A DNA stretch of 64,000 bases from a virus (IMGVR_UViG_3300006133_000325); one strand, 5' to 3'; numbered from the stretch's first letter, positions 6,472 through 49,332 are shown. Made by a program: numbers and translations. The notes: generated by a model not told the origin, from the letters alone.

Positions 6472-7005
6472 TTATTTTATCAAATATCTTAAATAGTACT
6501 GGAACGTTGCCAATATAAATATCGGGCTTAATTCTTTTTGTGGCATAAAGACCATCTCTAATCCATATTTAGCATTAAAGCTATGTAGCGATCCTAAAAA
6601 ACTTTTAGAGTTATACTTTGTATTATAATTTCCCTCTATCAAGTCTTTGTAAGTAGCATTTTCTATCAAAAGATATTTTCTTTTCGCATAGCAACGGCTC
6701 CATTCATCATTAAAACGTTCTCTTGTTTGAGCAAGGCATCCTGATAGTTCTTCTAAAGAATTCTTTCTCTCTAGGATAATGTCATTATAGAAAAACTGTT
6801 TGAATGGTAAATCTAATTCTGGTATTGCTTCCAAGCAGAAGCTATAATCTCCCGCTGGAAGTCCCATTACTTCATACTGAATTTTGTGTTTATCCCAGTA
6901 TTCTAGTAAATGCAAATTTGCTTTTTCGCGACTATCGACTAAGATAATCATCTTTTTCAAAATCTTTTGAATCTCTGCGTCTGTATATTTTCTTCTATTT
7001 AACAT
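6472..7005 (-). CDS. ERCC4/XPF-family nuclease
   Basis: VDSREK, GDY, ERK...EL motifs. Confidence 0.85.
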   Translation of the reverse strand: MLNRRKYTDAEIQKILKKMIILVDSREKANLHLLEYWDKHKIQYEVMGLPAGDYSFCLEAIPELDLPFKQFFYNDIILERKNSLEELSGCLAQTRERFNDEWSRCYAKRKYLLIENATYKDLIEGNYNTKYNSKSFLGSLHSFNAKYGLEMVFMPQKELSPIFILATFQYYLRYLIK

Positions 7006-10283: not shown

Positions 10284-11618
10284 ATCGGGTAACGATCTTG
10301 TCTGTAAAATTCTGGTTTTTGACATAAATCTATCTGGATAAAGCTTAACAGGCGAGGCAAACCTATCTATATTGCTAAATCCCAAAAGCGAGTTGACATA
10401 ATAAGAGACACCACTACCTCTACCAGTTTTTGTTACTATTCCCCCTTTCTCAATTCCTCTTTTGACTAATTTATAATCAATCAAAAAGTAATCTGCCATA
10501 TGTGTTTCTATAATTGCATCTAACTCATATTTAATTCCTTCTTCGTAAAGCTTTCTTTTTTCTTCTGGAATAGTATTTTGGATATCATTCCATTTTTCAT
10601 AAACCAAATTTGTCAACGCAGCATCTTTTTCAGATTGACTCATGGAAAGATTACTGGATGGTAATTTTATTTCTTTGTCAAAAAATAATTCATCAAAAGT
10701 AAGAATGAGATCTGTATTTTTAATGCATCTATCTATTTCCCTTTCTGTAAGAACACCCTGCTTTTTTAATCGCTTCCTTACTGTTTCTTCATCAGGATAA
10801 TCCATATACCATCCAGTCTCTTCATCCTCTTCTTTTGTATATCCCTTTCTTCTTGTAGAAACATAATTGTTCCGTTCTATATAATCACTTTCTAATATGA
10901 AATGGCTGTCATATCCAAAAATAATGTCGATTCCATATTTTTTACTTATAGAAATAATTCTTTTGTTTAATTTTTTTTGCTCTGGCGTATCATGATATTG
11001 TATCTCCAGAAAAAAATTCTCGCCAAAATGTTGATGTAATTTTTCGGTAATTTCCTCAATATCATCATATTTCCAATAGGCAATGCAGGCGGTTGTCACG
11101 AATACATTTTCAGGTTTAATTCTAAGAAATAATTCTAGATCCAATCTTGGTTGACCATAATACCCATCAATATTAGCATCAGATAATGCCTCGTTGATGT
11201 CTCTTCGTCCCTCTTCATTTTTCGCAAGTAGTATAATATGACAATTGCTTCTATCTTTTTTTAAAAGAAGGTTTCCATCCTTATCTTTTTTATATTCTCC
11301 TGTTTCTTTATCTATAAATGGATATTCTTTCTTTCTATCTTTTACCCAATATGCCTCTGCTCCAAATACAAATTTTAAAAGTGATTTTTCATATTCTTCT
11401 TTTGTTATTTCTCCTTTTTCAAATCTTTCCTTTGCCTTATTATTATTTTCTTGTACTAATTCATATGGTTCATAATAATTCGACTGAAATCCATGCTCTA
11501 CGCTTGAGATTACTTTCTGTCCTAGGTCTTTCGCCCTTTTTATGTAATCTTTATAGGAAACAGCACAGTCGGCTACTAGAACATTAGAGTACCAAGTATG
11601 CTTATGATAATTCTGGAT
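10284..11618 (-). CDS. dnaE: DNA polymerase III alpha (DnaE-like), exon 1 with PHP domain (probable ATC start)
   Basis: Frame open 158 codons upstream of track start: IQNYHKHT, VEHG, GAEAY, HIILLAKN, DSH, GRGSG. Confidence 0.9.
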
Positions 11619-23201: not shown

Positions 23202-24083
23202 CTAATAGTTTGTAATCAATACTTCTATATCCTGGCTCTTATCCTTCTTTTGGTAATTGCAATTGTTATAATTACCATTTAAATAATGTACGTGATATCT
23301 ATCCTTCCATTCTTTCAGCATTGGATTGTCATATTTTAAATTGTTACTTAGTGCAAACCTCCCGCCCCTAAGATTGATGCCATCCAGTAAATTTAATAAA
23401 TCTCTCTCATCATTCTTCGTCCAGCCACCGTTTTCATTATAAGAAGCAACAGAATTATAATACGGCGGATCACAATACACAAAGTCCCTGTTTTGAAAGA
23501 CGCAATCTCTAAAATCTTTATTATGAAACTCAATATCCTTCTTATGTAATTCTTCTACAAACTCTTTCAGTTTCTTCTGTAATGCTATATTGTAATCTCG
23601 TTTTCCGTATGGTATATTGAATTCTCCTTTTGAATTAAAGCGTATCTGATTATTAAAAGCACATGCAATCAACGTATAAAACTTTATCCAATTTGGATAC
23701 TTATTATAGTCTTCCCGTAATTTTAAGTATTTAGTTTTATTATAATTCCCTAGACCATTACTTGAATTACAACCATAACTTTTATATCCATTTATATCAG
23801 ATCTGCTTAGCCCATAGCTCGTAATTGTTTCAAGGATTTTCTCATGAATATCTTTGTAATCAATTTCATAAAAATGTTTTAATAAATCTACTACTTGGGT
23901 ACATATATCATTATATATAATATGTTCTGCTTTTACATTTACGCCTACATTAAATCCACCGCCAAACAAATCAATAAATGTATTCATATCATCTGGGAAG
24001 AGATGTAAAATCTCCCCCAGCAATTTATATTTCCCACCGACATAATTCAAGCAAGATTTTATGTATTTTTCACTCATTATCAA
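23202..24083 (-). CDS. dam: Dam-like N6-adenine DNA methyltransferase
   Basis: NYVGGK, DLFGGG, R.N.KGEFN.PYG, DPPY, EVLITNY. Confidence 0.88.
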   Translation of the reverse strand: MIMSEKYIKSCLNYVGGKYKLLGEILHLFPDDMNTFIDLFGGGFNVGVNVKAEHIIYNDICTQVVDLLKHFYEIDYKDIHEKILETITSYGLSRSDINGYKSYGCNSSNGLGNYNKTKYLKLREDYNKYPNWIKFYTLIACAFNNQIRFNSKGEFNIPYGKRDYNIALQKKLKEFVEELHKKDIEFHNKDFRDCVFQNRDFVYCDPPYYNSVASYNENGGWTKNDERDLLNLLDGINLRGGRFALSNNLKYDNPMLKEWKDRYHVHYLNGNYNNCNYQKKDKSQDIEVLITNY

Positions 24084-24084
24084 C

Positions 24085-24124
24085 TAGGAGTAAACGCGCA
24101 TTTAAATGGTATACCAAACCTCAT
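24085..24124 (-). promoter_or_regulatory. Two-palindrome leader element, copy 1
   Basis: ATGAGGTTT-GGTATACC-ATT-TAAATGCGCGTTTA-CTCCTA. Confidence 0.6.
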
Positions 24125-24164
24125 TTTCCTCCTTGTTTATTTTATAAATCGTTTTATTATTCCA

Positions 24165-25034
24165 TCAATAATTAGTTAGGCAATCTCTCAACATTTCATC
24201 TTTTGCTCTTTGATAAAACGTGAGGTCAATCTCAAATCCGTATGCACTTCTTCCCAATTCAACCGCTGCCCTCAAAGTCGTTCCAGACCCACAGCAGGGA
24301 TCTATGACAACATCTCCCTCATCTGTAAATATCTCAATCAACTTTTTAAGGACTGATACGGGTTTTTGTGCAGGATGAATTTTAGGTATTTCTTTTCCAT
24401 CTCGCTCCCAATTAAACCAATTAAAAACCATATGACCTGTACCTGGAATATTTTTACCATTTTCATCAATTTGCAATCCATTTCTAAACTTAGGCAATCT
24501 GTCTCGATATAAAAGCAGTGCATATTCCGTTGCTCCTACAACACGCATATTTGCCTTTAGGACTTGAGGGCTGTAATTTTTGATGAATACTAAAGGTATG
24601 TAGTGGATAAAGCCATGTTTTGTCGCCGCGCTAATGAGCGTCTGTATCTGCTCAAAGCTGCAAAACACAATCATACAGGGAGAATTGCTACTCCTGCCTC
24701 GTGGAACTGGTTTTGTATCGTCTTTCTTTAACATTTTGTGACAGAAATTAAACATTTCATAAAGATTAAAATTGAAATCCGAATTAAAAGCCGCTTTTTT
24801 TGCATATTTACTTTCACCATTTTTGTTATTTCCCTTTTCGTACCACATAGGATTACTACCATAAAAATTTGTTCCAATGTTATAAGGACAATCGCAAATT
24901 ACCAACTGCGCTCTCGGTATGTTATAGCCTTTAAAATTCTGAAAACTATCTCTGTAAATCTCGAATTTAATTTTCTTTTTATATTCCATTTTTATTAGGA
25001 GTAAATCATGATTTATCCCGCGCGGAAACCTCAT
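24165..25034 (-). CDS. N4/N6 DNA methyltransferase (beta class); alternative start at 24989
   Basis: DCPY (DPPY-like), HPAQKP, DPCCGSGTT, GFEID. Confidence 0.88.
   Translation of the reverse strand: MRFPRGINHDLLLIKMEYKKKIKFEIYRDSFQNFKGYNIPRAQLVICDCPYNIGTNFYGSNPMWYEKGNNKNGESKYAKKAAFNSDFNFNLYEMFNFCHKMLKKDDTKPVPRGRSSNSPCMIVFCSFEQIQTLISAATKHGFIHYIPLVFIKNYSPQVLKANMRVVGATEYALLLYRDRLPKFRNGLQIDENGKNIPGTGHMVFNWFNWERDGKEIPKIHPAQKPVSVLKKLIEIFTDEGDVVIDPCCGSGTTLRAAVELGRSAYGFEIDLTFYQRAKDEMLRDCLTNY
24996..25034 (-). promoter_or_regulatory. Two-palindrome leader element, copy 2
   Basis: ATGAGGTTT-CCGCGCGG-GA-TAAATCATGATTTA-CTCCTA. Confidence 0.6.
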
Positions 25035-25081
25035 TTCCTCCTTGATTTTCTATTATTTCTATCTCATTTATTCCCTTGTAA

Positions 25082-25409
25082 TTACTCAATTTTTACATTG
25101 ATAAACCCAAGAACTTCCTTCATTCCAAGACCACCATCTTCCCATGGTTTCATACAATATTCCCATAATTTCGGATGTGTTTGCTTTAGCCGTTGAAATC
25201 TGTTTGGTTCTTTCTCTAAATGACACCCATATCCGCAAAAGGAGTATCCTGTCCTACTACAAGCAGTTGTATAATACTTTCCAGACTTCAAGCCTGCATT
25301 GTTTTTAGATCTTCATTTGTATATGCTCTTTGCTCTGAATTATAATCAGAAGGAGATAAAATGTCAGAATCATTATACCCCCTCTGGTTATTTTGCGTTT
25401 ATTATCCAT
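25082..25409 (-). pseudogene. PAPS-reductase-family gene remnant (N-terminus joined to C-terminus)
   Basis: YTNEDLKTMQA*SLE abuts RTG..FCGYGCHLEKEPNRFQRLK.THPK. Confidence 0.65.
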
Positions 25410-25535
25410 TACCTTATTGACATACGGCGTGTAAACACTTAATAACCGATTACTTTATGTACTTCTCCTTTTTCTTTTTTTGTATTTTCAGATTGTACTT
25501 TTCTGATTTATGGTACGTCTGCCGTCTTGCTCAAA

Positions 25536-26334
25536 CTACTTCTTTATTTCTTTTTCTTTACTACAATACTCATCACTTTTTAAGTGCTGTATAACTCGAT
25601 TTTTACCAGCTTCAAAATATTTTTCATCTTTTTCAATACAAATCACCTTTCTGTTTAAGTTACTTCCTGCAATTGCACATGTCATACTTCCTGCAACAGA
25701 ATCTAATACAACATCTCCTTCATCTGTATATGTTTTTATAAAATACTCATAAATTTCTACTGGCTTTTGAGTTGGATGAATCTTTTTTGATTGATCTGCA
25801 TTACTAAAAATCTGCACATCCAATGGGTATCTATCTGTACTGTCATATAAGGTATTTCGTATTTCTCTGCCATAACAGCTATTCCCATCTGCCTCTTTGA
25901 CATATTTTGTTTTTGCAAATTTTCTTTTATGTCCATGTGTCATCTGTGGATGATAAATTGGTGGTCTTTTATAAAACACTTCTATATTTTCATGCGCCCG
26001 CATTGGCATTTTTTTAGCGTTTAGATGTCCTTTGGGGTGTGTTTTCTGCCATATCCATTCATACTTAAACATCTTAGGATTACTCATTACCAAAGCAGAC
26101 GTAAATGGTTGACTACTAAATAGTAAAATCGCCCCATTGTCCTTAATAATTCTATTGTATTGTTTCCACAAAGGTTCAAACGGAATAATAATATCCCATC
26201 TACATTGAGTGGTACTAACCATACGGAAGATCGGAAATAATGCAATCTATGGATTTATCTGGAATATAACTCATAACATTCAGACAATCTCCGCGAATCA
26301 GCATATTATCACGAAAATCCGTATTGCTCGGCAC
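25536..26334 (-). pseudogene. N4/N6 DNA methyltransferase frameshifted by a 4-nt insertion
   Basis: GDCL..M...SID.I.SDLPYG* then TTQCRWD...HPTQKP...GS in another frame. Confidence 0.8.
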
Positions 26335-26399
26335 CTCCTCTTCATTAAATATTTTATATATATCTGTCAAAGCAAAATCCTTTCTTTATTTACAGGTTA

Positions 26400-26543
26400 A
26401 GTTTTTCTTATGTTGTAATATTCTATCATATCCCTTTTTAAATATTTTTTCTCTTTCTTAATACAAATACCTTTTTTCCTGATTTCTTAATGGCTATTGA
26501 TGAGATCTAAACAATCACCACAAAATAATTCAATACCTTTCAT
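26400..26543 (-). pseudogene. DNA methyltransferase remnant (internal deletion)
   Basis: MKGIELFCGDCLDL joined to a degenerate C-terminal segment. Confidence 0.5.
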
Positions 26544-26556
26544 TTAATATCTTCTC

Positions 26557-27285
26557 CTATACAAGCCCTAATCTTCTTTCTGCTACATCAAAATATTTTT
26601 TATCAATTTCATATCCTAAGAAGTTTCTTCCTAGCTCTGAAGCTGCTACCAATGCAGAACCCGTACCGCAGAATGGATCGAAAACTACTTCTCCTTCTTT
26701 GCTGGAATTTAATATATAGAATTTTAATAGATCTACTGGTTTTTCACATGGATGTGTCTTGTTTCCTATAATATTAGAAAATTGATGAACAGTTTTACTT
26801 TTTCCTATGTTATTGATATATTTTGCTTTTCCTTTTCTTAAAAACAAAATATATTCACAATTCTTCATATAATATTGGGAACAGACACAATTATTCTTCT
26901 CCCATACCAATAGATTATGTAGTTTAAAACCTACTTTTTGCGATTCGTTTAACATATCTGTCAAATTCAAGACATTCGTAAAAATATAGGCATGGCTCCC
27001 ATTCTTTAGAACTCTATATACATCCGACATCCAATCTGATATTTTTACATTTTGGTAGGAAAATAACCTTCTGTTGCCACTCAACATCCCCTTCGGACGT
27101 TCCGAATTCCTACCATTATGATTTCCTCCTGTAATAATTCTATATGGAGGATCTGTAATCAGTAGGTCTACACTTTCTGATTCCATGTTTCTCATTGCTA
27201 CAATAGAATCATCATTTATGATTTTATTACATTCCATTCTTTCTTTAGGGGTAAAATATACTTTATTGGAATTCCAAATCCCCAC
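26557..27285 (-). CDS. N4/N6 DNA methyltransferase (beta class); alternative start at 27237
   Basis: TDPPY, HPCEKP, DPFCGTGS, GYEID. Confidence 0.9.
   Translation of the reverse strand: MGIWNSNKVYFTPKERMECNKIINDDSIVAMRNMESESVDLLITDPPYRIITGGNHNGRNSERPKGMLSGNRRLFSYQNVKISDWMSDVYRVLKNGSHAYIFTNVLNLTDMLNESQKVGFKLHNLLVWEKNNCVCSQYYMKNCEYILFLRKGKAKYINNIGKSKTVHQFSNIIGNKTHPCEKPVDLLKFYILNSSKEGEVVFDPFCGTGSALVAASELGRNFLGYEIDKKYFDVAERRLGLV
27246..27285 (-). promoter_or_regulatory. Two-palindrome leader element, copy 3
   Basis: GTGGGGATTT-GGAATTCC-AA-TAAAGTATATTTTA-CCCCTA. Confidence 0.6.
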
Positions 27286-27294
27286 TCCCTCTAT

Positions 27295-27720
27295 TTATTT
27301 ATCGCTACTACTAAACTCATCTAAATCGGTATTGATTTTTGTTTGATCAATATCCCTTAAAAGTATTTCATAATCAGTATCACATAATCCCAAATAATCT
27401 TGTAAACACCAAGGAGTATTTTTTGGAGTTAGCTCTATCCATTTGTTAATCTTTTCAATCCATTCTTCCTCTTTGTAATCTTCTAATACATGCGTCTCAT
27501 ATTTCGCTTGTAGCCAAGCCAATTCTGCAGCAATCGCCTTCTCATATGTTATATAGTGTCTTGGTAAGTCAGGAGAGGTATAATAATACCCTAATCCAGA
27601 AGAGCGATATACCCGTTCTTTTGCAATCCTACTAATATTTCTTTGATTTAACTTTTCTATATTTGTAATAATATCCCAGCTTTCTATATTTGGAATCACC
27701 TTGCATAGTAGGAAAACCAT
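27295..27720 (-). CDS. Hypothetical phage protein
   Basis: ORF in operon; start uncertain. Confidence 0.5.
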   Translation of the reverse strand: MVFLLCKVIPNIESWDIITNIEKLNQRNISRIAKERVYRSSGLGYYYTSPDLPRHYITYEKAIAAELAWLQAKYETHVLEDYKEEEWIEKINKWIELTPKNTPWCLQDYLGLCDTDYEILLRDIDQTKINTDLDEFSSSDK

Positions 27721-27839
27721 GCAAGGCTATGTTTATTATTCCTTGTTTTTACGATGCCTCCCAGCTATATAACCTCCAATAAAGGATGCAATCAAACAAA
27801 CACTAAGATACAATAAAAAACTCCCAATTTGTAACATAA

Positions 27840-28586
27840 TCATATCTTTCCACTCTTTCTCTTTGCCTTCATCTTTGATAGTTTCCGCTCAATCTCTTCT
27901 TCCTTCATACGTTTGTCTAATCTTTGTTGCTGAACATCCGAAGAATTCTCATAAGCCACTTTATGACCATCTGCCTCCTCTTTTGTCTTGCGAACACCAT
28001 CACGAACTTTTTCTAGCATTTTATCTTCTTCCTTGTTAGAAATCCCAGGTGTGGCTTGTAATGATTTCGTAACCTGTGCTGTTTCTAATGTAAGTACCGC
28101 ACTTTCTTTCTCAGATTTTAAATCAGCCAATTCATTAAAAAGCTGATCTACTGTTTCTTTTTGTAAAGAGGAATTTTCTCTTAATTCTTTTAATGCACTT
28201 TTGATAATATCGATTTTTTCCTCTATTTCCTGTTGGCGTTTTAAATATACCTTGGCTCCCTCATCATCTTCTTTTTCCATACAAGAATCAAGATTGATGC
28301 CTAATTGCATATTGCCTTTCTGTAAACTTCTTAACTGTTCTTCGTAGTTTTGAATCTTGCCAAGCATTTGTGTATAAACCGAATATGCCTGCCTATAATC
28401 TTCTTCCTTTTTAGTAATTGCAGTATTGTAATAAGCCTTTGCCCCTTCTGGAGTAGATGCATCTTTTGTTATTATCTCATCAGCAGTTCCAACCATCCTA
28501 AGGCGTAATCTTTTCCCGATTCTTGTGACGAATAAAAAGACAATTACCATAATCAATAATAGTATCATTGCTACAATTTTAGCCAT
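27840..28586 (-). CDS. Membrane-anchored PspA/IM30-like coiled-coil protein
   Basis: N-terminal TM helix, long coiled coil, L..MK tail. Confidence 0.6.
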   Translation of the reverse strand: MAKIVAMILLLIMVIVFLFVTRIGKRLRLRMVGTADEIITKDASTPEGAKAYYNTAITKKEEDYRQAYSVYTQMLGKIQNYEEQLRSLQKGNMQLGINLDSCMEKEDDEGAKVYLKRQQEIEEKIDIIKSALKELRENSSLQKETVDQLFNELADLKSEKESAVLTLETAQVTKSLQATPGISNKEEDKMLEKVRDGVRKTKEEADGHKVAYENSSDVQQQRLDKRMKEEEIERKLSKMKAKRKSGKI

Positions 28587-28588
28587 AC

Positions 28589-29227
28589 TTAATCTCTCCC
28601 CTCATCAATCGACAAACCAAAATTCTGAAATAATTCTGTCATTCCATTTCTGTACCCAGAGCCAAGTGCCTGGAATTTAAACCCATTGTTATAGCGATAT
28701 AATCTACCCATTTCTACAGCATTTAGATTTTCAAAATTTTCATTTTCTGATAAATCATATTTATAACACTCTCCGGATGGATTATCATAATCACAGATTG
28801 TCATAGTTGCATTGCTTACCATGCCAAAATTTTGCAAACGCTGTACTGCCCTAAAAATAGTTAAACATACTGTAAAATCAGTTCTGTTTGTCGGAAACTT
28901 ATCGGCATGAATGATAAAATACTCATCAAAGTGTTCCCTGTTAAAAGTAATCCCTTGTGAATCATCTCCTGTTCGATTATCTCCCGAATACTCGATCCAC
29001 GGATATGAGCTGCCATCACCATATGTATTGTAATTTACAATATCATTTGGATATGCTACTTTTCTATCAGAGTTTGTCAAGAAGCCATGAATATCAAAAT
29101 CTATATCTGCTTCTCCTGCATATCTGTTGGCATCCCAATTCACCCCAATAAATACATTTGCAATAGCGCTTCCATCTTCTTTTGTCATATTGATTTTTTG
29201 GTTCTTACTCATGTTAATTACTTCCAT
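28589..29227 (-). CDS. terD: TerD-family stress protein
   Basis: GVNWD, D.D, GDNRTG, QNFGMVSNA, YDLSE, FQALGSG. Confidence 0.9.
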   Translation of the reverse strand: MEVINMSKNQKINMTKEDGSAIANVFIGVNWDANRYAGEADIDFDIHGFLTNSDRKVAYPNDIVNYNTYGDGSSYPWIEYSGDNRTGDDSQGITFNREHFDEYFIIHADKFPTNRTDFTVCLTIFRAVQRLQNFGMVSNATMTICDYDNPSGECYKYDLSENENFENLNAVEMGRLYRYNNGFKFQALGSGYRNGMTELFQNFGLSIDEGRD

Positions 29228-29244
29228 AATTCCATTCCTCCATT

Positions 29245-30033
29245 TTATTTATTGTTGAGCCAATCCTTATATTGGCGCAAAATTTCAGTATATAACTCCT
29301 CATCACTCATACCATCCATATCGCAAACGGCAGTAAATCCTGTATTGTCATTTTTTCTTCCTTTCATATCATCCAAAGAACGTAAATAAGAAAAATTGTC
29401 ATTTCCGATACCAATAAACTGCACAAACATATTGTAATTGGAAAGTTCCTTAATGATTTCATTTGTTTCCGTCTTATCCCAATTATCTCCATCTGTAATA
29501 AAAATGATAAATGCCGGAATGCAACTTGGTTCTACGTCTTTATAGTACTTCACGATGTCTTTTAAAACTGGCGCATAATTTGTCCCGCCCATATTCATAC
29601 GGGATTTCATCATAACCTCCCTTACATAATTCTTATAGTTTTGAATTGTCACAGCTTCCACTCGTTTTTGACTATCTGAAAACAGCCAAGATTCTAATTC
29701 GCCGTTATCATCAAATCGTAAAGAGATTGGAAGCAGCCTGGTAATAGTATTCTGCACAGATCCATCTGCAAACAGCCCGGACATACTACCGGAATAGTCC
29801 ATTGCTAATGCCACTCTTGCAACATGTTTTGACATATCAATTTTTCCTGTTTTAGACATATCAATCAATACTTTATCTAAGTTTTTTGCCGACTTAGACA
29901 TATCAATCGTCCCTACCATTTTTTCAGTTGATTCCTTTTGCGGTATTTCTCTACTTTGTGCTGGAGTACCGGAAATATCCGGATACTCCTCTTTGTTCTT
30001 GCTAAAAAGATTCTTAAATAGTCCCATACTCAA
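29245..30033 (-). CDS. vWA domain protein (Ter-associated)
   Basis: MIDAS DYSGSM, GGTNYAP, FITDG, QFIGIG, DNTGF. Confidence 0.88.
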   Translation of the reverse strand: MSMGLFKNLFSKNKEEYPDISGTPAQSREIPQKESTEKMVGTIDMSKSAKNLDKVLIDMSKTGKIDMSKHVARVALAMDYSGSMSGLFADGSVQNTITRLLPISLRFDDNGELESWLFSDSQKRVEAVTIQNYKNYVREVMMKSRMNMGGTNYAPVLKDIVKYYKDVEPSCIPAFIIFITDGDNWDKTETNEIIKELSNYNMFVQFIGIGNDNFSYLRSLDDMKGRKNDNTGFTAVCDMDGMSDEELYTEILRQYKDWLNNK

Positions 30034-32662
30034 ACTCCTTTTCTTTTATATTATTTCTTTTTACAATCGCTTTTCTAATCAAATCTACTGGAATTACCAA
30101 AAGAGAAAGACCTATAACGATAAGCCATTGAATCAGGTTCAATGAAGTAAGTTTCAATAATTCTCCTAAAAACGTACAAGCAATCATAACTCCAACAAAG
30201 ATTCCAATTGCTATCTCAACAAATAATTTATTTTTTTTCAAACCATGAAATAGATTAAAATGTTCTGTCCGAATATTAAATCCATTAAATACAGCCATGA
30301 AGCAAAGTATCGTAAATCTAGCAGTCAAAAATTCCAAATCACTCGTAAAATATCCGTGTAGAGATGTAAACATCATAAGGAAATACACCCCGATAAAAGT
30401 ACATGCGGCAATTGCGATTCTTCCCTTTGCTCCTCTGATAAATAAGCCAGAGCCTTTTTTAATAGGAACCTCACATATATATTCTTTTTTAGAAGGTTCT
30501 CCGCCAAAGGAAAGAGAGTTTAAAGAATCCATAATAATATTTACGATCAATATTTGAACAGATGCTAAAACAGACATACCAGAAGCAAAAATTGGATACA
30601 AAATACCTAAAATCAATAATGAAATATTGATAGGAAGTTGGAACTCTAAAAACATCATAATGTTGTGCATAAATGTCCTGCCAAGTTCTACTGCCTTTAC
30701 AGTGGAAGCAAAATTATCATCTGTTAAAACAATATCACTTGCTTCTTTTGCAACATCGCTTCCGCTTTGCATACCAAAACCAACATCTGCTCTCTTTAAG
30801 GCAGGTGAATCATTTACTCCATCCCCTGTCATCGCAACCGATTTATCAATTTCCTGTGCCAATGTCACCAAACGCAATTTTGTATTTGGAGAACATCTTG
30901 AGATAACGCGAAGAGAAGGAAGAACCTCTTTTACTTCTTCATCCGTCATTGCTTCAAATTCGTCATTTGTCAATGCAACCTCTCCATCTTTATAAATACC
31001 ACATTCCTTTGCCACAGCTACGGCAGTTTCAATACAATCTCCTGTAATTTCGATTACTTGTATCCCTGCTTTTTGTGCTGTCTTTACTGCTTTTGGCACC
31101 TCTTCTCTTATCGGATCTACCACTCCTATAACCCCTAAAAGCGTCATTTCATGTGGCAGATGATTTTCTATCAATGCTTCATTTTTAACTGCCAGGGCAA
31201 TACACCTCATAGATTTCGAGGTCATTGTTTTAATTGTATCACTTAGATTGCTTTTCATTTCTTTTGTGAATTCAAATACCGTTCCATTCTCCTGCATGTG
31301 TTGCGAACAAAAATCAATAATTCTCTCTGGTGCGCCTTTATAATATGTAATGCCATTTTCTGCGGTAAAGGCAGAGTATTTATTTAAGCTACTAAATACT
31401 TGCTTGTCCTTCATTTTGTTGTTTTTTACAATTTCTGAGTAATTCGACGGATTTACAAGGCTTAATACTGCTCGGTCAATAGAATTACCTCCTATTATGC
31501 TTCCTTCTCTGTCAAAGGTTGCACTATTATTTAGTACTATATTTTTCTGAACAGTATCCCAAAGAGTAGAATTTTTTAACAACTCTTTTCCACTTCCATC
31601 TATCACTGTTTTAGGAGACATCATTCCTGTTGTTAAAGTTCCAGTTTTATCTGTACAAATGATATCAACATAGGCTAATTCTGGAATCTTATTTGGATTT
31701 TTGGCAAGAATATTGAATCTTTCCATAGTTTTTACATTTTGCTTTGTAACCAATTTCACAATCAAAGGAAGCCCTTCCGGAACTGCTGCTACGATAATGG
31801 TTAATGCCACAGAAAAGTTTTGTGCAAATTTTTGTGCCAAGCTAAATACATTATCTGAAAAATAATTCTCAAATCCTACCTTTAAAATTCCCGAAGTCAC
31901 CAATACGATAAATGTTAAAATAGCAGCCGCGGTTCCCCATTTTGATATAAAATCGCCTAAATTATCAAGTGCAATATTTAATGCTGTTTTAGGTGATTCC
32001 AGCGTTTGCATTTTTACCATTGTATCACCATTAATCGTATTCACTCCAACATCTGTTACTACCATCTTCCCTTCGCCTGACATTACTGTTGTACCAGCAA
32101 AGAGACAATTTTCATTTGTATAAGCATCGGTTGATGTCGTTTTCTTATGAATATATTCATCTACTGGCTTTTTCTTACACTCTTTTGTTTCTCCATTGAT
32201 AGCAGCATTATTAACCGAAATTTTTCCTTCTACTATATACCCATCTGCAAAAATTTCATTTCCTAATCCAAGGCATACAATATCTCCTACTACAATATCA
32301 TCTTTATTGATGGTTTCTAATTTCCCATCTCTAATCACATCGCAATACCTTACAGATGTTTTTTCTCTTAACTCAACTGCAGATTTTTGTACTCCAATCC
32401 CTGTTTTTACGGCAATTCCTGTCACGATTCCAAGCACAACCATAATCATAGCTGGCTCTGAAAATTCCATTACTCCAACAAAAGTTAGTCCAAATTGTAA
32501 AACAGCGATAGAAATAAGGATCATTGTAATTTTTTCACTTAATGCTTCCTTTGCAAACTCATACCATTTTTTTAATTTTGGCTCTGGTAGTTTATTGCTG
32601 CCGTATTTCTTTCTGCTTTTTATAACCTCATTTTGAGTTAAACCTTTCATTTTTTCCTCCAT
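30014..32662 (-). CDS. Ca2+-translocating P-type ATPase (PMCA-like)
   Basis: VPEGLPL, DKTGTLT, KGAPE, DP.R, MTGDGVNDSPALK; multiple TM helices. Confidence 0.92.
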   Translation of the reverse strand: MEEKMKGLTQNEVIKSRKKYGSNKLPEPKLKKWYEFAKEALSEKITMILISIAVLQFGLTFVGVMEFSEPAMIMVVLGIVTGIAVKTGIGVQKSAVELREKTSVRYCDVIRDGKLETINKDDIVVGDIVCLGLGNEIFADGYIVEGKISVNNAAINGETKECKKKPVDEYIHKKTTSTDAYTNENCLFAGTTVMSGEGKMVVTDVGVNTINGDTMVKMQTLESPKTALNIALDNLGDFISKWGTAAAILTFIVLVTSGILKVGFENYFSDNVFSLAQKFAQNFSVALTIIVAAVPEGLPLIVKLVTKQNVKTMERFNILAKNPNKIPELAYVDIICTDKTGTLTTGMMSPKTVIDGSGKELLKNSTLWDTVQKNIVLNNSATFDREGSIIGGNSIDRAVLSLVNPSNYSEIVKNNKMKDKQVFSSLNKYSAFTAENGITYYKGAPERIIDFCSQHMQENGTVFEFTKEMKSNLSDTIKTMTSKSMRCIALAVKNEALIENHLPHEMTLLGVIGVVDPIREEVPKAVKTAQKAGIQVIEITGDCIETAVAVAKECGIYKDGEVALTNDEFEAMTDEEVKEVLPSLRVISRCSPNTKLRLVTLAQEIDKSVAMTGDGVNDSPALKRADVGFGMQSGSDVAKEASDIVLTDDNFASTVKAVELGRTFMHNIMMFLEFQLPINISLLILGILYPIFASGMSVLASVQILIVNIIMDSLNSLSFGGEPSKKEYICEVPIKKGSGLFIRGAKGRIAIAACTFIGVYFLMMFTSLHGYFTSDLEFLTARFTILCFMAVFNGFNIRTEHFNLFHGLKKNKLFVEIAIGIFVGVMIACTFLGELLKLTSLNLIQWLIVIGLSLLVIPVDLIRKAIVKRNNIKEKEFEYGTI

Positions 32663-32820
32663 TTCTTTTTATTTTTTGCTTTCTATATAATCTATCACAC
32701 AATCCCTGATAGTAGAAAACAAAACAATTAAACCAATTCCAATAACAATCCAAGCAGTTTCTTACATTTTATTACTCCTTCCTAGCATCCAAACATATTG
32801 TTCATCATCTTGTAAATTCA

Positions 32821-33717
32821 TCACTTCCTTAACCTAATTTTCTCAAACATATCATCAACTGATTCAAGTAAATCAAATCTCTCATCTAAAGGAGATGTTG
32901 AACTTTTAGAAAACTCCTTTTCTACCATATCAATAAAATAGGTAAATTCCGAATCCTCTCCCATATAAAACTCATCCCATTCTTCACTACTCATCAGCCG
33001 TCGGACTTCAAGCTGTTCTAAGGCTAAATTATCAAAGCTTACTACTTTGAAATGTTCGATGATGGCACCAATGTTTTCTTTCAGCCACATTTGTTTAGCA
33101 ATAATATTTTCACACTCCGCCCTATACCATTCATTTCCACGTCTTAACTGTTTATATCCAAGGATAAGTATTTTTAAACCTTTATCAGACAATATCTTTA
33201 CGTCAGATGGTTTAAATATACCGTTTATTACATGAATAACTGCATTTGGATACTGTTTGACCAATGATATAAATTCATCTGTTGGATCTACAAGTGATAC
33301 CCCAAGACCATATATCAATTTTTCTTCAGCTAATTTTTTAATCAGTTCCTGCTTCTGTTCAAAATGTTTTTGATTGACTGTAACATTTGCAATAACCCTT
33401 TTATCTTTTAGCTTATGTAAGAACGGAATCAGATCGGGATGGCTTGTTACGTCACCCCCTCCAAGTGCAACCTCCTGATACGGATGTAAAGTTTCAATAA
33501 AATTTTGGTTTAGGATATCTCCATGTTTACCATTTTTTGTACTTCCCTCATGACAAAAAGCACAAGACATGTCGCAATAATTGCTTATTTTAATATCATT
33601 ATTCTCTGCAAAATCAGGAATGAATTCATCCTCTTGCGTTTCTCTAATTTTAGTTCCGTCTAAAATATTAAATTTAACTGTGTAATTCCCATTTTTATAA
33701 ATCTTCCAACTGTTCAC
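32821..33717 (-). CDS. Radical SAM protein
   Basis: CDMSCAFCHE, ALGGG, NVTVN. Confidence 0.85.
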   Translation of the reverse strand: MNSWKIYKNGNYTVKFNILDGTKIRETQEDEFIPDFAENNDIKISNYCDMSCAFCHEGSTKNGKHGDILNQNFIETLHPYQEVALGGGDVTSHPDLIPFLHKLKDKRVIANVTVNQKHFEQKQELIKKLAEEKLIYGLGVSLVDPTDEFISLVKQYPNAVIHVINGIFKPSDVKILSDKGLKILILGYKQLRRGNEWYRAECENIIAKQMWLKENIGAIIEHFKVVSFDNLALEQLEVRRLMSSEEWDEFYMGEDSEFTYFIDMVEKEFSKSSTSPLDERFDLLESVDDMFEKIRLRK

Positions 33718-34537: not shown

Positions 34538-35219
34538 TTGTCTCCATATTTACTAATCCTGTTCGCTTCATATCTTTCCAATAACAGTACTCATCACCAT
34601 CCTGAATTACTATATATTTCTTATTGATAAGATATTCTTCAAGAGAGATATTCTCCTTTTTTAAAAAATTACTCAAAATATCTTCATCTACACATCCTGT
34701 ATATGGCTCTTCATAATGCCACCATCCACTTGCTTCCCAATATCCGACTGCAATCTCCCAATCATTTCCTTTTTGTAATAAATATTCTTTTAATTCTTCT
34801 TCAGTCTTTCCATGTATTTGATAATAATCGTTATTTTCATGTATTTTAGAATCTTTATTCGCAATTATACGATTACCCATCGGAAGTTTAATCTTCTTAA
34901 GACCTGGTATGTATTTCAGCGCGAGTGAAACAAGTTCTTTATAAACCTCATCATTGTATTCATGAACCAAAGATGCACAAGCATACAGCCATTTATCTGC
35001 AAATGTTCCTATAGCCCTAAATGGGCTTCTCCCAAACTCCATATCATGAATCCATGGTTTCCAAACACAAGACACCTCTCCTGTATCTGCATCCCTTTCT
35101 AGGTATATTCCATTTAGAATTTCTTCTTTAGTATATTTATCTTCTCGTTTCATAACCGTAAAAGAGTGCATACTACTTGAGTTTGTTTCAAATACACCTC
35201 TTCTAATTTGTGTTTTCAT
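34503..35219 (-). CDS. FETNSSS-motif phage protein
   Basis: IRRGVFETNSSSMHSF. Confidence 0.75.
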   Translation of the reverse strand: MKTQIRRGVFETNSSSMHSFTVMKREDKYTKEEILNGIYLERDADTGEVSCVWKPWIHDMEFGRSPFRAIGTFADKWLYACASLVHEYNDEVYKELVSLALKYIPGLKKIKLPMGNRIIANKDSKIHENNDYYQIHGKTEEELKEYLLQKGNDWEIAVGYWEASGWWHYEEPYTGCVDEDILSNFLKKENISLEEYLINKKYIVIQDGDEYCYWKDMKRTGLVNMETIDHEYPEEDWE

Positions 35220-37413
35220 ATTTTCCCCTTTCCTTATAAAAAAGCCTTCTTAACGTACAAATATCTCTTGGCATGCTACTCAAATCTTCTATATCATGTA
35301 AATTTCTAACCCAAGCATAAAATTCATTTGCTATTGGTGTGGTTAATCCAGAAGTTTTATAAATGTATCCGTTTTTAATTGTCTCATGAGCTACGCTTCT
35401 CATAAATTTCCAGAAATGATAATATGTCAGCTTTAGCTTGACCATATATCCAGAACTGTCTTCAATTACAAAACCTTCAATCTTGTTATTGTTGTATTCG
35501 TAGTCTTCCTGTAAAACATCATAATACCAATCAAAAAAATCTTGCCAATTTGCAATCTCAAACGCTTTTTCTTTGTGTTCTAATCCAAACTGCTCTGCAA
35601 TATGGCACATCTCACCATATTCATATTTAGCAAACTTCATTTGATTGTAAACAATATCTAATAATACCAACTTGTTTTCAGAATATTCGATAATATGCGG
35701 ATCGTTCTTCCTATCAACACATTCAAACACGAATGATACATTATGTTCTTTTATATAATTCTTCATTTTCAGTATATTTTCTTCTGATACTTTCTCATAC
35801 AACATATCTTTAAGCCAGCCAGCAAATTCACTGTCAATTGTAGACTTACTTGCAATAAATAAATCATCTTCATATTCGTTATAGCTGATAATTCCCAGAA
35901 AACCATTCTCTTTCACATATGCTGTTACAGGAAATTGTAGTTTATGCTGCAACATATCAAATTTCGTTTCAGAACGTTCATTGACATTAAAAAATTTTGT
36001 ATATGCTCTTGCTACTACTTTTCCTTTCATTGTGTCAAGATATAGTCCTCTTGCTTTCGTAGTCTGTTCGTCCCATATTTTATTGTAAAATACTTTAGGG
36101 GTAAAATTAAAAGATGAAATATTACCGAACTTCTTTTCTTGAATATACTTATTAGAACGCAATGCAATAATGACATCTGCTATCGTACTGCCTGTTACAG
36201 TTTGCTCTTTTTTGATTTCTGGTGTTTTAAATACCTCATTCTTTACTTCTATTGTATGAATCCCATTTTTATCAATCTGAACACACCTGAGATAACCTCC
36301 AAATTCTACTTGTCCTTCTAAATTGAATACCTTGTCATTTACTTGAATTGGCAATTGTTTCGTATTTCTATGTCCATGAACCTGGTAATAATTTTCTGGC
36401 GTAGTATTCAAATACGTCTCTGCCATTTTCTCAAAATCATTGTAATTGCCTACTCCATGAATCATTTGATCGGTTGCTACAAATGATAAATTGTTAGGAA
36501 CTGTACTGAGTCCAGCATGAGTAACCAAGAAAACTTTATCTTCATATTTATAATAAGCACACTGTCCAAATCTTCTATATAACTGTCTGATATCTTTTTT
36601 ATCAATTCCAGCCTCAATAAGTGCTGGTTTTGTTACTAACTCAAATTCTTTTGATTGGCTGAGACAATCATTAGCGTATAACCATAACCATTTTTCATGG
36701 TTCCCTTCTAACATCAATACATTTCTCTTATCTTTAATCGAAATAAGAAACTTTACAACTTCGGCATTTTCAATTCCTCGATCAATATAATCACCTGTAA
36801 AAATGAAAAACTCATTATCTTTCATTCCACCATTATCTGATAGATATTTCTGCAACACAGTATTGCAGCCATGGATATCTCCAATATGATGAATTTTTTC
36901 ATACTCTGACAAATCAATCATTTTCATCCAAATAGTATCTAATTCATCTGGTTTGATAATCTTTACTCCAGATGGAATCTTTTGCGTAGCAAATCTGGAA
37001 TACATTTTATCTATCACTTCTTCAGGTACTCTCTTTAATGGTACTCTGTTTGCATTTCTCCTTTTTACTTCTTCAATTGGAATATCTGTAAAATCAACAC
37101 AATAAATCCGATATCTATAGGTATCACACATTTGTTTATATCTGTTGATTTCTGATGTCTTGGAATTAGTTGCATCTACTACTGTAAATTCTCCTTTTTT
37201 CATCCTTGTTTCTAACAAGTTGAATAAAACCTTCCATGCAATGCCATCATTACTTTGACTGATTTCTTCCCTACCATCCAGCCGCATAATAGGACTCTGG
37301 CATAATAATCTGATATCATCTACTGATAATGTATAGGATTTTAACCCATTCTTTTCAATCCATGTGGATTTACCACATCCGGCAGAACCTCTTAATAAAA
37401 GTAAAATTCTCAT
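35203..37413 (-). CDS. Trifunctional RNA repair enzyme: polynucleotide kinase + metallophosphatase + Rnl1-like RNA ligase
   Basis: GSAGCGKST/DD.R/DATN; GDIHG, GDYIDRG, GNHE; ARGL, KFFN, KENG, FE, EGFV, KLK. Confidence 0.88.
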   Translation of the reverse strand: MRILLLLRGSAGCGKSTWIEKNGLKSYTLSVDDIRLLCQSPIMRLDGREEISQSNDGIAWKVLFNLLETRMKKGEFTVVDATNSKTSEINRYKQMCDTYRYRIYCVDFTDIPIEEVKRRNANRVPLKRVPEEVIDKMYSRFATQKIPSGVKIIKPDELDTIWMKMIDLSEYEKIHHIGDIHGCNTVLQKYLSDNGGMKDNEFFIFTGDYIDRGIENAEVVKFLISIKDKRNVLMLEGNHEKWLWLYANDCLSQSKEFELVTKPALIEAGIDKKDIRQLYRRFGQCAYYKYEDKVFLVTHAGLSTVPNNLSFVATDQMIHGVGNYNDFEKMAETYLNTTPENYYQVHGHRNTKQLPIQVNDKVFNLEGQVEFGGYLRCVQIDKNGIHTIEVKNEVFKTPEIKKEQTVTGSTIADVIIALRSNKYIQEKKFGNISSFNFTPKVFYNKIWDEQTTKARGLYLDTMKGKVVARAYTKFFNVNERSETKFDMLQHKLQFPVTAYVKENGFLGIISYNEYEDDLFIASKSTIDSEFAGWLKDMLYEKVSEENILKMKNYIKEHNVSFVFECVDRKNDPHIIEYSENKLVLLDIVYNQMKFAKYEYGEMCHIAEQFGLEHKEKAFEIANWQDFFDWYYDVLQEDYEYNNNKIEGFVIEDSSGYMVKLKLTYYHFWKFMRSVAHETIKNGYIYKTSGLTTPIANEFYAWVRNLHDIEDLSSMPRDICTLRRLFYKERGKYENTN

Positions 37414-43272: not shown

Positions 43273-43458
43273 TTAATCCTTTAGCAATCTTTTAGTAAGT
43301 TCCTCATTCAATTTCCTGCTCTCCGATATTTCCTTTTCAAGCTTTTTAATCCGTTCCTCATACTGTTCTCTTTCTTTTTTATCCATGTGTACATATTCTG
43401 TTTTTGTTGAACAATTACAGTTACAAGCTCCACAATTACTCCCATCACAACTAGGCAT
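43273..43458 (-). CDS. Cys-rich peptide with C-terminal coiled coil (candidate radical SAM substrate)
   Basis: MPSCDGSNCGACNCNCST; start overlaps SPASM gene stop; GGAGG RBS. Confidence 0.65.
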   Translation of the reverse strand: MPSCDGSNCGACNCNCSTKTEYVHMDKKEREQYEERIKKLEKEISESRKLNEELTKRLLKD

Positions 43459-44458
43459 TTTTATTCCTCCATTTCTTCAACATATAAAGAATTACCGCTT
43501 TCAAAATATCGCAAGTATAATTCTTATTGATTTCCTTGTTATTCTCTTTGCAGCCGCCACCGCAAATATCGCTTATAGGACAACCCTTACATTTTTCTGG
43601 CAATGAATAGTTATATCCAAGCCGATATTTCTTCTGTTTCTTAAATTCCTCTACAATGCTTTTATCATCAAAAATATTGCAGATTTTTTCTCCATAAACT
43701 GTTGTTTGACAAGGGAAAATATCTCCGTTCACATATATTGCAATCAATTTCTCTCCTGCTGTGCAACCCTCGTAACTTGAATTTATGCTGATATTGGAAA
43801 ATTTCATTTTGTTGTAAATGTCATATCCTTTATTGCAAAGAATATCTATAACCGAAATCATCTTCTCGACAATCAAATCCAATGGCATTTCCCCGCAAAA
43901 GAAATGGTCTAAATAAATCCCCCAGTTCAAATCCCTGTCAGCTATCCATTCCGCCAATTTTTCAATATCCGAAAAGCTGTTCTTATCAATGACGGTAGAA
44001 ATATCAATGTTTCTATTCTTGTTTCCAATCAGTCTCTCTATGTTTTCTTTCACGATTTCAGCAGATGATTTTCCGTTATGGAATGGTTTGGAATAAGAAA
44101 ATCCGTCAAGTGAAACGCCAAAACTGTATCTCGTATCTTTGAAGTATTTCAGCATTTCGTCTGTCAGAATAGTTAAATTTGTAATAACGCTTACATGACC
44201 GTTTCCGTTCGCCTTATCAATAAATTCTTCTGCGTGTGAAATCCATTTATCAAATACAGTTAGCGGCTCTCCACCTGCAAGCCTATAAATAACAGTTTTC
44301 TTTTCTCCGCTCTCAAGCATTTTCAAGAAAACATCATTTATCCTTTGATATGTACCGCTTTTCATATCCTCATTTCCTTGTTTCACATAACAATAAGGAC
44401 ATTTCAGATTGCACCTTGTTGTAGTGAAAATCCAAGGGGAAATATAACTCATTTCCAA
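43451..44458 (-). CDS. Radical SAM/SPASM domain protein
   Basis: CNLKCPYC, GGEP, SLDG, CTAG...GDIFPC, CKGC....CGGGC...C. Confidence 0.9.
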   Translation of the reverse strand: MEMSYISPWIFTTTRCNLKCPYCYVKQGNEDMKSGTYQRINDVFLKMLESGEKKTVIYRLAGGEPLTVFDKWISHAEEFIDKANGNGHVSVITNLTILTDEMLKYFKDTRYSFGVSLDGFSYSKPFHNGKSSAEIVKENIERLIGNKNRNIDISTVIDKNSFSDIEKLAEWIADRDLNWGIYLDHFFCGEMPLDLIVEKMISVIDILCNKGYDIYNKMKFSNISINSSYEGCTAGEKLIAIYVNGDIFPCQTTVYGEKICNIFDDKSIVEEFKKQKKYRLGYNYSLPEKCKGCPISDICGGGCKENNKEINKNYTCDILKAVILYMLKKWRNKNA

Positions 44459-48453: not shown

Positions 48454-49332
48454 TTAATCTCCTTCTCCTATATACACTAATTGTTCAATATATTTCCTTC
48501 CTTCTCCTTTGAAAATTGGTATTTCCTTATCAATAATCCACTGGCTTCTCAATACGCCAGATTCTACCTCATTATTTTCATAAGATGTAGTGCATCCTTC
48601 AGGAGATTCAGTAAAGTTTCTATTATCATTTCTCGCAAAATATTTTTCTCTGACTACTCCACTACCATGTTTTTGATACGTAGGAAAACCATTCCAGTTA
48701 ATTTCTTTTTGTTTCATAAGCATATCTTTAATATCATTACATGATTTTTCCTGTAGTTCTTTATGGCTAAAATTAGCTTGTCCAACCACCTGAATACTAT
48801 TTCTGGTAGCATCAAGTTGTCTCCAATAAAAGTAGTTTGCCACTTCTTCTTTTGGAATGTTGAACACTCTGGCATCAAACATAGCTTTTCCAAGAACATT
48901 GAGATAAACTTCGTAAAACTTTGTATGTTCTTTTAATACTTCATTCTGAATATTTTTAAAAAAGAAACGATTAAAAGCCATTGTCGCCATACTTGCGGAA
49001 ACAGAACACATCTTCTGTACTTCATAGTCAAACCATGCCGAACTTTCTAATCTTTTATAATCTATCAATAACAACGATATCTCATCCGATTGTGTATATG
49101 CAAACATACATCCCATAATATTTTCACAAAGATATTTTGATGTCTCTTGCATCGTCTTAATCAAAAGTTCGTCGAATGGTCGATCAAATCCTCTTGTATA
49201 AGTATGAAATGCCTTCCCATCAATCCTAATGACTACAGGACAACGCCTCATCAGTCTTGTTTTAGGAATCGTCTCATAGAACTCCTTCATCCGATTCGAT
49301 AAATCATCCCTTAAAATCTTTTTTTTACTCAT
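48454..49332 (-). CDS. thg1: tRNA(His) guanylyltransferase Thg1-like protein
   Basis: RMK.YE, RIDGKAFH, YTQSDEISL, FDAR, WRQ.DA.RNS. Confidence 0.92.
   Translation of the reverse strand: MSKKKILRDDLSNRMKEFYETIPKTRLMRRCPVVIRIDGKAFHTYTRGFDRPFDELLIKTMQETSKYLCENIMGCMFAYTQSDEISLLLIDYKRLESSAWFDYEVQKMCSVSASMATMAFNRFFFKNIQNEVLKEHTKFYEVYLNVLGKAMFDARVFNIPKEEVANYFYWRQLDATRNSIQVVGQANFSHKELQEKSCNDIKDMLMKQKEINWNGFPTYQKHGSGVVREKYFARNDNRNFTESPEGCTTSYENNEVESGVLRSQWIIDKEIPIFKGEGRKYIEQLVYIGEGD

Follow-up and report, generated by a model that had tools for sequence, protein, structure and literature searches.

Why would a phage carry a full-length calcium pump in one operon with Ter-type proteins and a PspA-like membrane protein? 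The question is raised by IMGVR_UViG_3300006133_000325, a viral stretch of 64,000 nucleotides (the window), in which an earlier note had described a tight operon of five intact genes and taken it for a calcium-dependent envelope complex. Judged from comparative analysis, the operon is real and well conserved with its gene identities correctly assigned, while its interpretation is plausible but unproven and the bioinformatic observation is already in the literature. We proposed, with confidence that is about evenly balanced, that it is a phage-borne, membrane-localised calcium and membrane-integrity operon, most likely acting in the infected cell during productive infection. Calcium handling was considered to be coupled to membrane maintenance because a Ca2+ exporter, two Ca2+/metal-binding proteins and an anchored polymer-forming member of the ESCRT-III superfamily, all of them membrane-tethered or tetherable, are strictly linked.

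The module was read as five intact open reading frames (ORFs) on the minus strand, at 27736-32662 of the window. They are listed below with their lengths in amino acids (aa), followed by a possible gene relic; TM stands for transmembrane.

30014-32662, minus strand: P2-type Ca2+ P-type ATPase, PMCA/LMCA1-like, 882 aa (Pfam, NCBIfam and PDB matches)
29245-30027 or 29245-30033, minus strand: TerF-type vWA protein, 260-262 aa (PF10138, 1e-58; Copine, 8e-10)
28589-29227, minus strand: TerD-domain protein of a divergent subtype, 212 aa (PF02342, 1e-36)
27840-28586, minus strand: TM-anchored PspA/Vipp1 (ESCRT-III superfamily) protein, 248 aa (sub-threshold PF04012 match and fold)
27736-27843, minus strand: single-TM micropeptide with a basic C-terminal tail, 35 aa (homologues beside the PspA gene)
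32669-32767, minus strand: candidate remnant of a gene for a small TM protein, just upstream of the ATPase; tentatively read from weak evidence in the sequence

The junctions bore out the tight operon that had been described. The ATPase and vWA genes overlap by 14-20 nt, the vWA and TerD genes are separated by 17 nt and the TerD and PspA genes by 2 nt, and the PspA stop codon and the micropeptide start codon share an ATGA overlap. Translation of the micropeptide is coupled to that of PspA.

Proteins of the module

The ATPase contained the Pfam domains E1-E2_ATPase, Cation_ATPase_N, Cation_ATPase_C and Hydrolase (the HAD core). Among the P-type subfamily models of NCBIfam, the best score was obtained with the PMCA-type model TIGR01517, at 505.0 bits against a cut-off of 507.05, and the heavy-metal, Mg2+, K+ and H+ models scored much lower (189 bits against a cut-off of 346 for TIGR01525). 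The closest PDB structures were those of plant ACA8 (8qmp, 7e-103), Listeria LMCA1 (6zhf, 1e-93) and SPCA1. The motifs ICTDKTGTLT, KGAPE and MTGDGVNDSPALK were present in the window ATPase and were kept in 66-67 of 67 module relatives. The site-II ligands AAVPEGLPL (M4), QLPINIS (M5) and VNIIMDS (M6) aligned with PEGLPL, TVNVA and VNLIMDT of ACA8, and DKTGT, PEGL, the M5 asparagine, VNIIMDS, KGAPE and GDGVND were conserved throughout 76 aligned ATPases, 67 from modules and 9 from chromosomes. All catalytic and ion-site residues were thus present, in a pattern that matches the single-site (site II) arrangement of the PMCA/LMCA1 Ca2+ exporters.

The ten-TM P2 architecture, the single-site M4/M5/M6 ligands and all phosphorylation motifs are shared with LMCA1, PMCA/ACA8 and the chlorovirus Ca2+ ATPase. 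In contrast to LMCA1, PMCA and ACA8, to which it is ~30% identical, the module ATPase has no calmodulin-binding tail, reads TGDC for TGDN, and carries NGET for the A-domain motif TGES. The latter reads NGET or NGES clade-wide, with the glutamate kept. It was regarded as a clade trait rather than a sign of decay because the chromosomal Ruminococcus copies described below have the same variant.

The TerD protein scored 126 bits with PF02342 (gathering score 25.3). Its residues D43, D45, G82, D83 and E102 were invariant in both architectures of the module (alignment A3), so that the acidic positions of both Ca2+-binding motifs are kept, and 8 aa are inserted in the long GDNRTG...DE calcium loop of the window subtype. 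The vWA protein scored 199 bits with PF10138 (gathering score 29.4) and had a complete metal ion-dependent adhesion site, with DYSGS (DxSxS), GGT and TDG invariant (alignment A2). Its N-terminus, MG(L/F)F.KLFG, was likewise invariant, with hydrophobic residues spaced at i, i+1, i+4 and i+5; this is a putative amphipathic membrane helix resembling the membrane-binding N-termini of PspA and Vipp1. The motif is followed by a variable linker, three invariant IDMSK repeats, which are reminiscent of the INMSK and INMTK strands of the TerD N-terminus (alignments A2 and A3), and the vWA domain. In the AlphaFold2 model (mean predicted local distance difference test score, pLDDT, 68) residues 1-40 and the linker were disordered, and the vWA core was Rossmann-like.

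The ter cluster terZABCDEF is that of IncHI2 R478, and yceCDEFGH of Bacillus subtilis is an envelope-stress operon. Both are similar to the module in their TerD paralogues (three in its alternative architecture, as in yceCDE), the TerF-type vWA domain and the link to membrane stress, but the module is without TerB, TerC, TerZ/A and TelA, and those clusters are not known to include PspA or a P-type ATPase. No match to TerB, TerC, TerZ/A/E or TelA was found by Pfam and NCBIfam in the module or flanking ORFs, the rest of the window having been scanned partly. The label "Ter-type" given to the module at first is therefore correct for the TerD and TerF-type vWA domains and does not extend to the other Ter proteins. 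As these two domains derive, by their Pfam names, from tellurite-resistance clusters, the module might be a metal or toxic-anion (tellurite-type) resistance cargo helping a lysogen in the gut. We considered this very improbable, since TerB, TerC and TelA are missing and the ATPase is of the P2 Ca-type, not the P1B heavy-metal type, as the TIGR01525 score showed.

The PspA-like protein did not reach the gathering score of PF04012 (20.2 bits against 33.9), and its relatives gave 27-31 bits. A profile of 21 sequences (A1) matched cyanobacterial PspA and Vipp1 in the PDB with an E-value of 4e-4 over profile positions 56-196. The AlphaFold2 model (mean pLDDT of 80, and above 90 over the hairpin) consisted of a TM helix, a linker helix, a hairpin of 59 and 70 residues and two more helices; helices 46-104, 108-177, 185-214 and 216-245 made up the alpha1-alpha5 coiled-coil body. 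The top 15 matches of the model in a Foldseek search of the PDB were all Vipp1 or PspA (best E-value 6.5e-5), and the hairpin of E. coli PspA (4whe) superposed on it with a root-mean-square deviation of 1.8 A. Because of the profile match, the model and the Foldseek matches, the predicted fold was assigned as PspA/ESCRT-III-like despite the sub-threshold Pfam score.

In 22 of 22 aligned relatives, a hydrophobic TM helix (residues ~4-22) stands in place of the amphipathic helix alpha0, and a K/R-rich stretch comes after it. Such a helix and basic segment would anchor the protein in an N-out, C-in orientation that leaves the PspA body on the cytoplasmic side. In a search of 185,579 species-representative genomes, this TM-PspA subfamily turned up only beside the ATPase module. 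No recurrent natural fusion ("Rosetta stone") of the protein was found; only five singleton long proteins were seen, most likely artefacts that arose from adjacent genes by read-through or gene calling. The Psp/Lia systems (PspA-PspBC, LiaIH) and Vipp1 have in common with it the PspA/Vipp1 fold, with an alpha1-alpha2/3 hairpin, alpha4 and alpha5, and the adjacent gene of a small membrane partner. It differs from them in the covalent TM anchor in place of alpha0, in the absence of PspB, PspC, PspF and LiaI/F, and in a score below the Pfam gathering threshold.

A TM peptide of 33 aa had been reported at the end of the operon. The peptide exists, its length being 35 aa when counted from the first ATG and 33 aa when the start is placed at the third codon; the first ATG was favoured because the homologues begin with MIVLNIG. 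These are 27-31 aa long, start with MIVLNIGVF, end with GKRKK and were located at -3 to +4 nt from the PspA stop codon in 126 of 169 testable loci. Since the micropeptide was present with both ATPase lineages (see below) and was always tied to PspA, it was read as a probable accessory partner of the PspA anchor, a regulin-type regulator of the ATPase being less likely.

Conservation, earlier descriptions and origin

A synteny survey in phages, which had been suggested as a check, found the same gene order on well over a hundred IMG/VR viral contigs. A scan with a back-translated pattern gave at least 130 contigs, mostly of 100-250 kb, with an ATPase 63-78% identical to that of the window, and an independent scan with the PspA profile gave 184; 80 loci were fetched from each (80 of 130 and 80 of 184). 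In essentially all of the 80 loci of the ATPase scan, the TerD and PspA-like genes followed the ATPase in the same order, while the flanking genes varied. In the PspA scan, the ATPase was found in 76 of 76 fetched loci that had enough upstream DNA. Two architectures were distinguished, ATPase-vWA-TerD-PspA-peptide, as in the window, and ATPase-TerD-TerD-TerD-PspA-peptide (TerDx3), in which the three TerD paralogues are canonical (228-280 bits).

The ATPase itself was found in more than one lineage. In the IMG/VR loci L115, L117 and L123 it was only 46% identical to that of the window, whereas vWA, TerD and PspA were 55-82% identical, which points to a probable replacement of the ATPase within a conserved module. 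A deeper TerDx3 version with a 46% identical ATPase was seen on the GTDB contigs L105 and L108, from metagenome-assembled genomes (MAGs). In close pairs, the ratio of nonsynonymous to synonymous substitution rates (dN/dS) was 0.08-0.17 for the ATPase and 0.02-0.06 for vWA, TerD and PspA. The module genes are under purifying selection and travel together.

Outside IMG/VR, the module was absent from 50,697 GenBank phage records, where megablast of the region gave no match. In tblastn searches of GenBank phages the ATPase had only matches of at most 37% identity, many of them on host-contaminated records, and the PspA-like protein had one weak match only. Two diverged copies of the whole module (L069 and L078) were found on one viral contig of 250 kb, IMGVR_UViG_3300029402_000234, with ATPases 65% and 63% identical to that of the window; the module may be truly duplicated there, or two phages may have been assembled into a chimera.

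The module has been reported before. According to the main text of a preprint (10.64898/2026.10.24.761521), a purely bioinformatic survey of phages above 200 kb and of IMG/VR PspA hits, 189 PspA genes occur in huge phages; among the neighbouring genes for membrane proteins, that of a Ca2+ P-type ATPase is the most frequent (42 cases), and TerD or vWA genes lie between PspA and the Ca2+-ATPase in 42 neighbourhoods. The module described there is similar to the present one in its PspA, its Ca2+ P-type ATPase, the TerD/vWA genes between them, its occurrence in gut phages of Bacillota and the same functional guess. The window and its relatives show the arrangement of the preprint, in which the phage genes for PspA and a Ca2+ P-type ATPase are close to each other and enclose TerD, vWA or both. 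In Jug phages, a Ca2+ ATPase and TerD-pspA-like operons are highly transcribed in situ in gut samples, and a small protein is co-transcribed with the ATPase (PMC12880540, Sci Adv 2026). That system likewise has a Ca2+-translocating P-type ATPase, TerD beside a pspA-like gene and a small co-transcribed protein, but the ATPase and TerD-pspA are in separate operons there, whereas here they form one operon in 100-250-kb phages of Clostridia. The module type is thus already described, and the earlier note was a rediscovery, pre-empted descriptively by these two 2026 papers. What is added here is the TM anchor that replaces alpha0, the micropeptide coupled to PspA, the strict co-occurrence of the ATPase and TM-PspA, and the nested position of the Ruminococcus ATPases. 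The main text of the preprint makes no mention of a TM anchor of PspA, amphipathic elements, a micropeptide, TerDx3, replacement of the ATPase lineage or nested chromosomal ATPases.

For the Jug phages it was suggested that the phage reprograms its host by calcium export alone (PMC12880540). Transferred to the window, the ATPase would be an auxiliary metabolic gene that lowers intracellular Ca2+ and so affects host metabolism, stress responses or sporulation, with TerD, vWA and PspA as unrelated neighbours. The separate operons of the Jug phages agree with this, as do the chromosomal Ruminococcus copies, which show that the ATPase can function alone. The co-occurrence and order found here were strict (76 of 76), across two ATPase lineages and two TerD/vWA architectures, and we regarded calcium export alone as an improbable explanation. 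Because the linkage persists across these ATPase lineages and TerD/vWA make-ups, functional coupling was preferred over chance adjacency; this is the strongest computational argument for it.

The description of the module as phage-encoded was upheld. The window, with a GC content of 32% and nearly all genes on one strand, carried phage genes for a primase-helicase, DNA polymerase III alpha, RNA repair and methylases, along with a 683-aa protein (phrog_1735) that was 65% identical to Herelleviridae proteins of Bacillus phages, and the module recurred on IMG/VR viral contigs. Since some relatives are in MAG bins and one is on an isolate scaffold, the region might instead be a host chromosome or a mis-binned bacterial island. 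This reading has next to nothing in its favour once the whole 64 kb are seen to be phage-like, the module is found on at least 130 IMG/VR contigs and the isolate itself shows phage-type flanks (a split NAD ligase and the 683-aa marker protein). Among species-representative bacterial genomes, the full module was seen on a few MAG contigs and in this isolate, Ruminococcus sp. AM36-2AA (499-kb scaffold).

A stand-alone ATPase, 66-70% identical, was found in 11 Ruminococcus/Oscillospiraceae genomes (L087-L096 and L098), without TerD, vWA or PspA within 8 kb. In L092 it was located amid the ordinary chromosomal genes of BlaR1, TetR, a CDF transporter and RsgA. No other chromosomal ATPase homologue above 39% identity was found among 221 genomes sampled from two Clostridia families, the relevant ones, in sets of 101 and 121. 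A maximum likelihood tree was computed from 57 rows (LG+G4, quick search, limited outgroup sampling). In this tree the module ATPases and the stand-alone copies formed one clade (support 99), and the stand-alone copies were a single subclade nested deep in the phage clade, sister to the module ATPases L036 and L077 (support 99). Forcing the phage ATPases to be monophyletic cost 121 log-likelihood units; the approximately unbiased (AU) test, applied to a group that was defined with the tree already in view, gave p = 0.0013.

The 66-70% identical chromosomal copies had made a recent capture of the ATPase from Ruminococcus a candidate history; this host origin was rejected because the tree and the AU test placed the chromosomal copies inside the phage diversity. 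The topology suggests transfer of the pump from phage to bacterium and its domestication in Ruminococcus. In the likeliest history, phages would have maintained an old ATPase lineage and a single transfer would have brought it from a phage into a Ruminococcus lineage, a case of a phage-evolved transporter domesticated by bacteria.

Proposed role in the infected cell

What had been read at first held up in its gene identities, in the tightness of the operon, in the phage origin and in the idea of a calcium-linked envelope module. We proposed the following sequence of events for productive infection. Perturbation of the envelope by genome injection, phage membrane proteins, holin leakage or membrane-active compounds of the gut would let millimolar external Ca2+ leak in. 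TerD and the vWA protein, the latter held at the membrane through its N-terminal helix, would bind the Ca2+, buffering or sensing it, and the permanently anchored PspA polymer would seal or stabilise the membrane and preserve the proton-motive force. The P-type ATPase would export the Ca2+ again, and the host would stay energised until the virions are complete. The micropeptide would assist the PspA anchor or, less likely, the ATPase.

A role in productive infection was favoured because the operon is co-directional with the flanking methylase, radical-SAM, RNA-repair and replication genes and no minus-strand terminator-like site was found flanking it. The counts of the promoter and terminator scan were not above shuffled expectation, and the scan says nothing about the operon boundaries. 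Of the two roles that had been put forward at first, membrane protection during infection fits the anatomy of the module and its co-directional early/replication context better, and superinfection exclusion is without direct support.

Under exclusion or lysogenic conversion, a resident prophage or episome would express the module and shield the lysogen from other phages or bacteriocins. The IncHI2 plasmid ter cluster is cited as conferring phage and colicin resistance (10.1101/2022.05.11.491447), an integrase-family gene (59474-60472) is present in the window along with a divergent Cro/CI-type helix-turn-helix (HTH) gene, and module-bearing elements occur in isolate assemblies such as the 499-kb scaffold of Ruminococcus sp. 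AM36-2AA. The cluster to which the R478 phenotype was mapped includes TerB, TerC and TerZ/A, none of which is in the module; 0 of 5 module proteins matched a PADLOC 2.0 defence model at E <=0.01; and, rather than forming a self-standing "moron" that has a terminator of its own, the module is embedded co-directionally among replication-phase genes. Exclusion was therefore judged rather unlikely. It might work through a low cytosolic Ca2+, sensing of the ion leaks linked to injection, or sealing of the membrane against incoming genomes.

Several points weigh against a calcium and membrane-integrity operon of productive infection. The functions of all module members, whether Ca2+ extrusion, Ca2+ sensing or membrane stabilisation, are ones that we infer only, and the Ca2+ specificity of the ATPase is predicted from homology. 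The ATPase stays 2 bits under the cut-off of the PMCA model TIGR01517 and has NGET in place of TGES, although the chromosomal copies share NGET. About one locus in four, the closest relatives of the window among them, lacks the micropeptide; in some loci, including these relatives (L003, L109 and L114), only a truncated remnant is left. The micropeptide is conserved but dispensable. Finally, the integrase-family and Cro/CI-type HTH genes, along with the relatives in isolate assemblies, make expression from a prophage possible.

A bolder version of the proposal is a self-contained machine for Ca2+-triggered membrane repair, in which TerD and vWA would read Ca2+ and recruit or switch on the anchored PspA, the micropeptide would tune the anchor and the pump, which phages would also have donated to Ruminococcus chromosomes, would reset the system. 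We held this to be speculative and unlikely. Ca2+-triggered ESCRT-III repair in eukaryotes, with recruitment by ALG-2 and annexins and a reset by PMCA, offers a works-like analogy only: it also combines Ca2+ sensors, an ESCRT-III-superfamily polymer and a Ca2+ pump, but the sensors are not homologous, and recruitment of PspA by TerD or vWA is purely hypothetical.

If the operon does combine calcium handling with membrane maintenance, a large and abundant group of gut Clostridia phages manages the calcium and the membrane integrity of its hosts. An ESCRT-III-superfamily protein would then be wired to Ca2+-binding proteins and a pump, in a tractable system for the role of TerD and the triggering of PspA polymers. 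Experiments are feasible, because a module-bearing element sits in the cultured isolate Ruminococcus sp. AM36-2AA.

Neighbouring genes of the window

Directly upstream of the ATPase start, at 32669-32767, a Shine-Dalgarno sequence, an ATG and an immediate TAA are followed by an in-frame hydrophobic frame of 30 codons. ORFs of 64-100 aa with two TM segments were found at the same position in some relatives (L048, L035, L053, L070, L081 and L097), and overlap the ATPase start in L070, L081 and L097. The segment may be a decayed small TM gene, at best a relic, and it brings to mind the small protein whose gene is transcribed together with that of the ATPase in Jug phages. The idea that a small TM gene is conserved ahead of the ATPase, as in the Jug phages, was rejected since only some relatives have one. 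Downstream, an ORF of 141 aa (27295-27720) was left out of the module because it had no family match and was not conserved next to it.

The module had also been said to lie amid many pseudogenes, which was not confirmed: 80.5% of the window is taken up by minus-strand ORFs of at least 60 aa, and part of the space between them is occupied by three plus-strand genes. The gene of DNA polymerase III alpha (6999-11144, minus strand) was the most obvious "broken" one, split into ORFs 10281-11144 and 6999-9011 with a NUMOD3 homing-endonuclease ORF (9290-10111) between them; it looks like an intron or an insertion of a homing endonuclease gene rather than a pseudogene.

At least five DNA methyltransferase genes were found on the minus strand (23202-27285 and 60740-62362), one of the D12/Dam class, three N6_N4 and one fused to DUF4942; four of them stand in a row directly downstream of the module. 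A radical SAM protein is encoded directly upstream of it (32821-33717, minus strand) and another, with a SPASM-like tail, at 43451-44458 (minus strand). The RNA-repair toolkit (35203-37413 and 48454-49332, minus strand) consisted of a 736-aa kinase (Pnkp)-phosphoesterase-Rnl1 ligase fusion (phrog_8238, 2e-221) and a Thg1-like 3'-5' nucleotidyltransferase. The Cro/CI-type HTH gene is on the opposite strand (54770-55579, plus strand), the phage-integrase-family recombinase gene is at 59474-60472 (minus strand), and a DUF4062 protein is encoded at 4677-5504 (plus strand). The HTH and recombinase genes hint at a temperate or episomal lifestyle. A 475-aa protein (49508-50935, minus strand) with a weak GmrSD_N match and a PADLOC match to NsnA (1e-10) may be a nuclease or the product of a defence-type gene.

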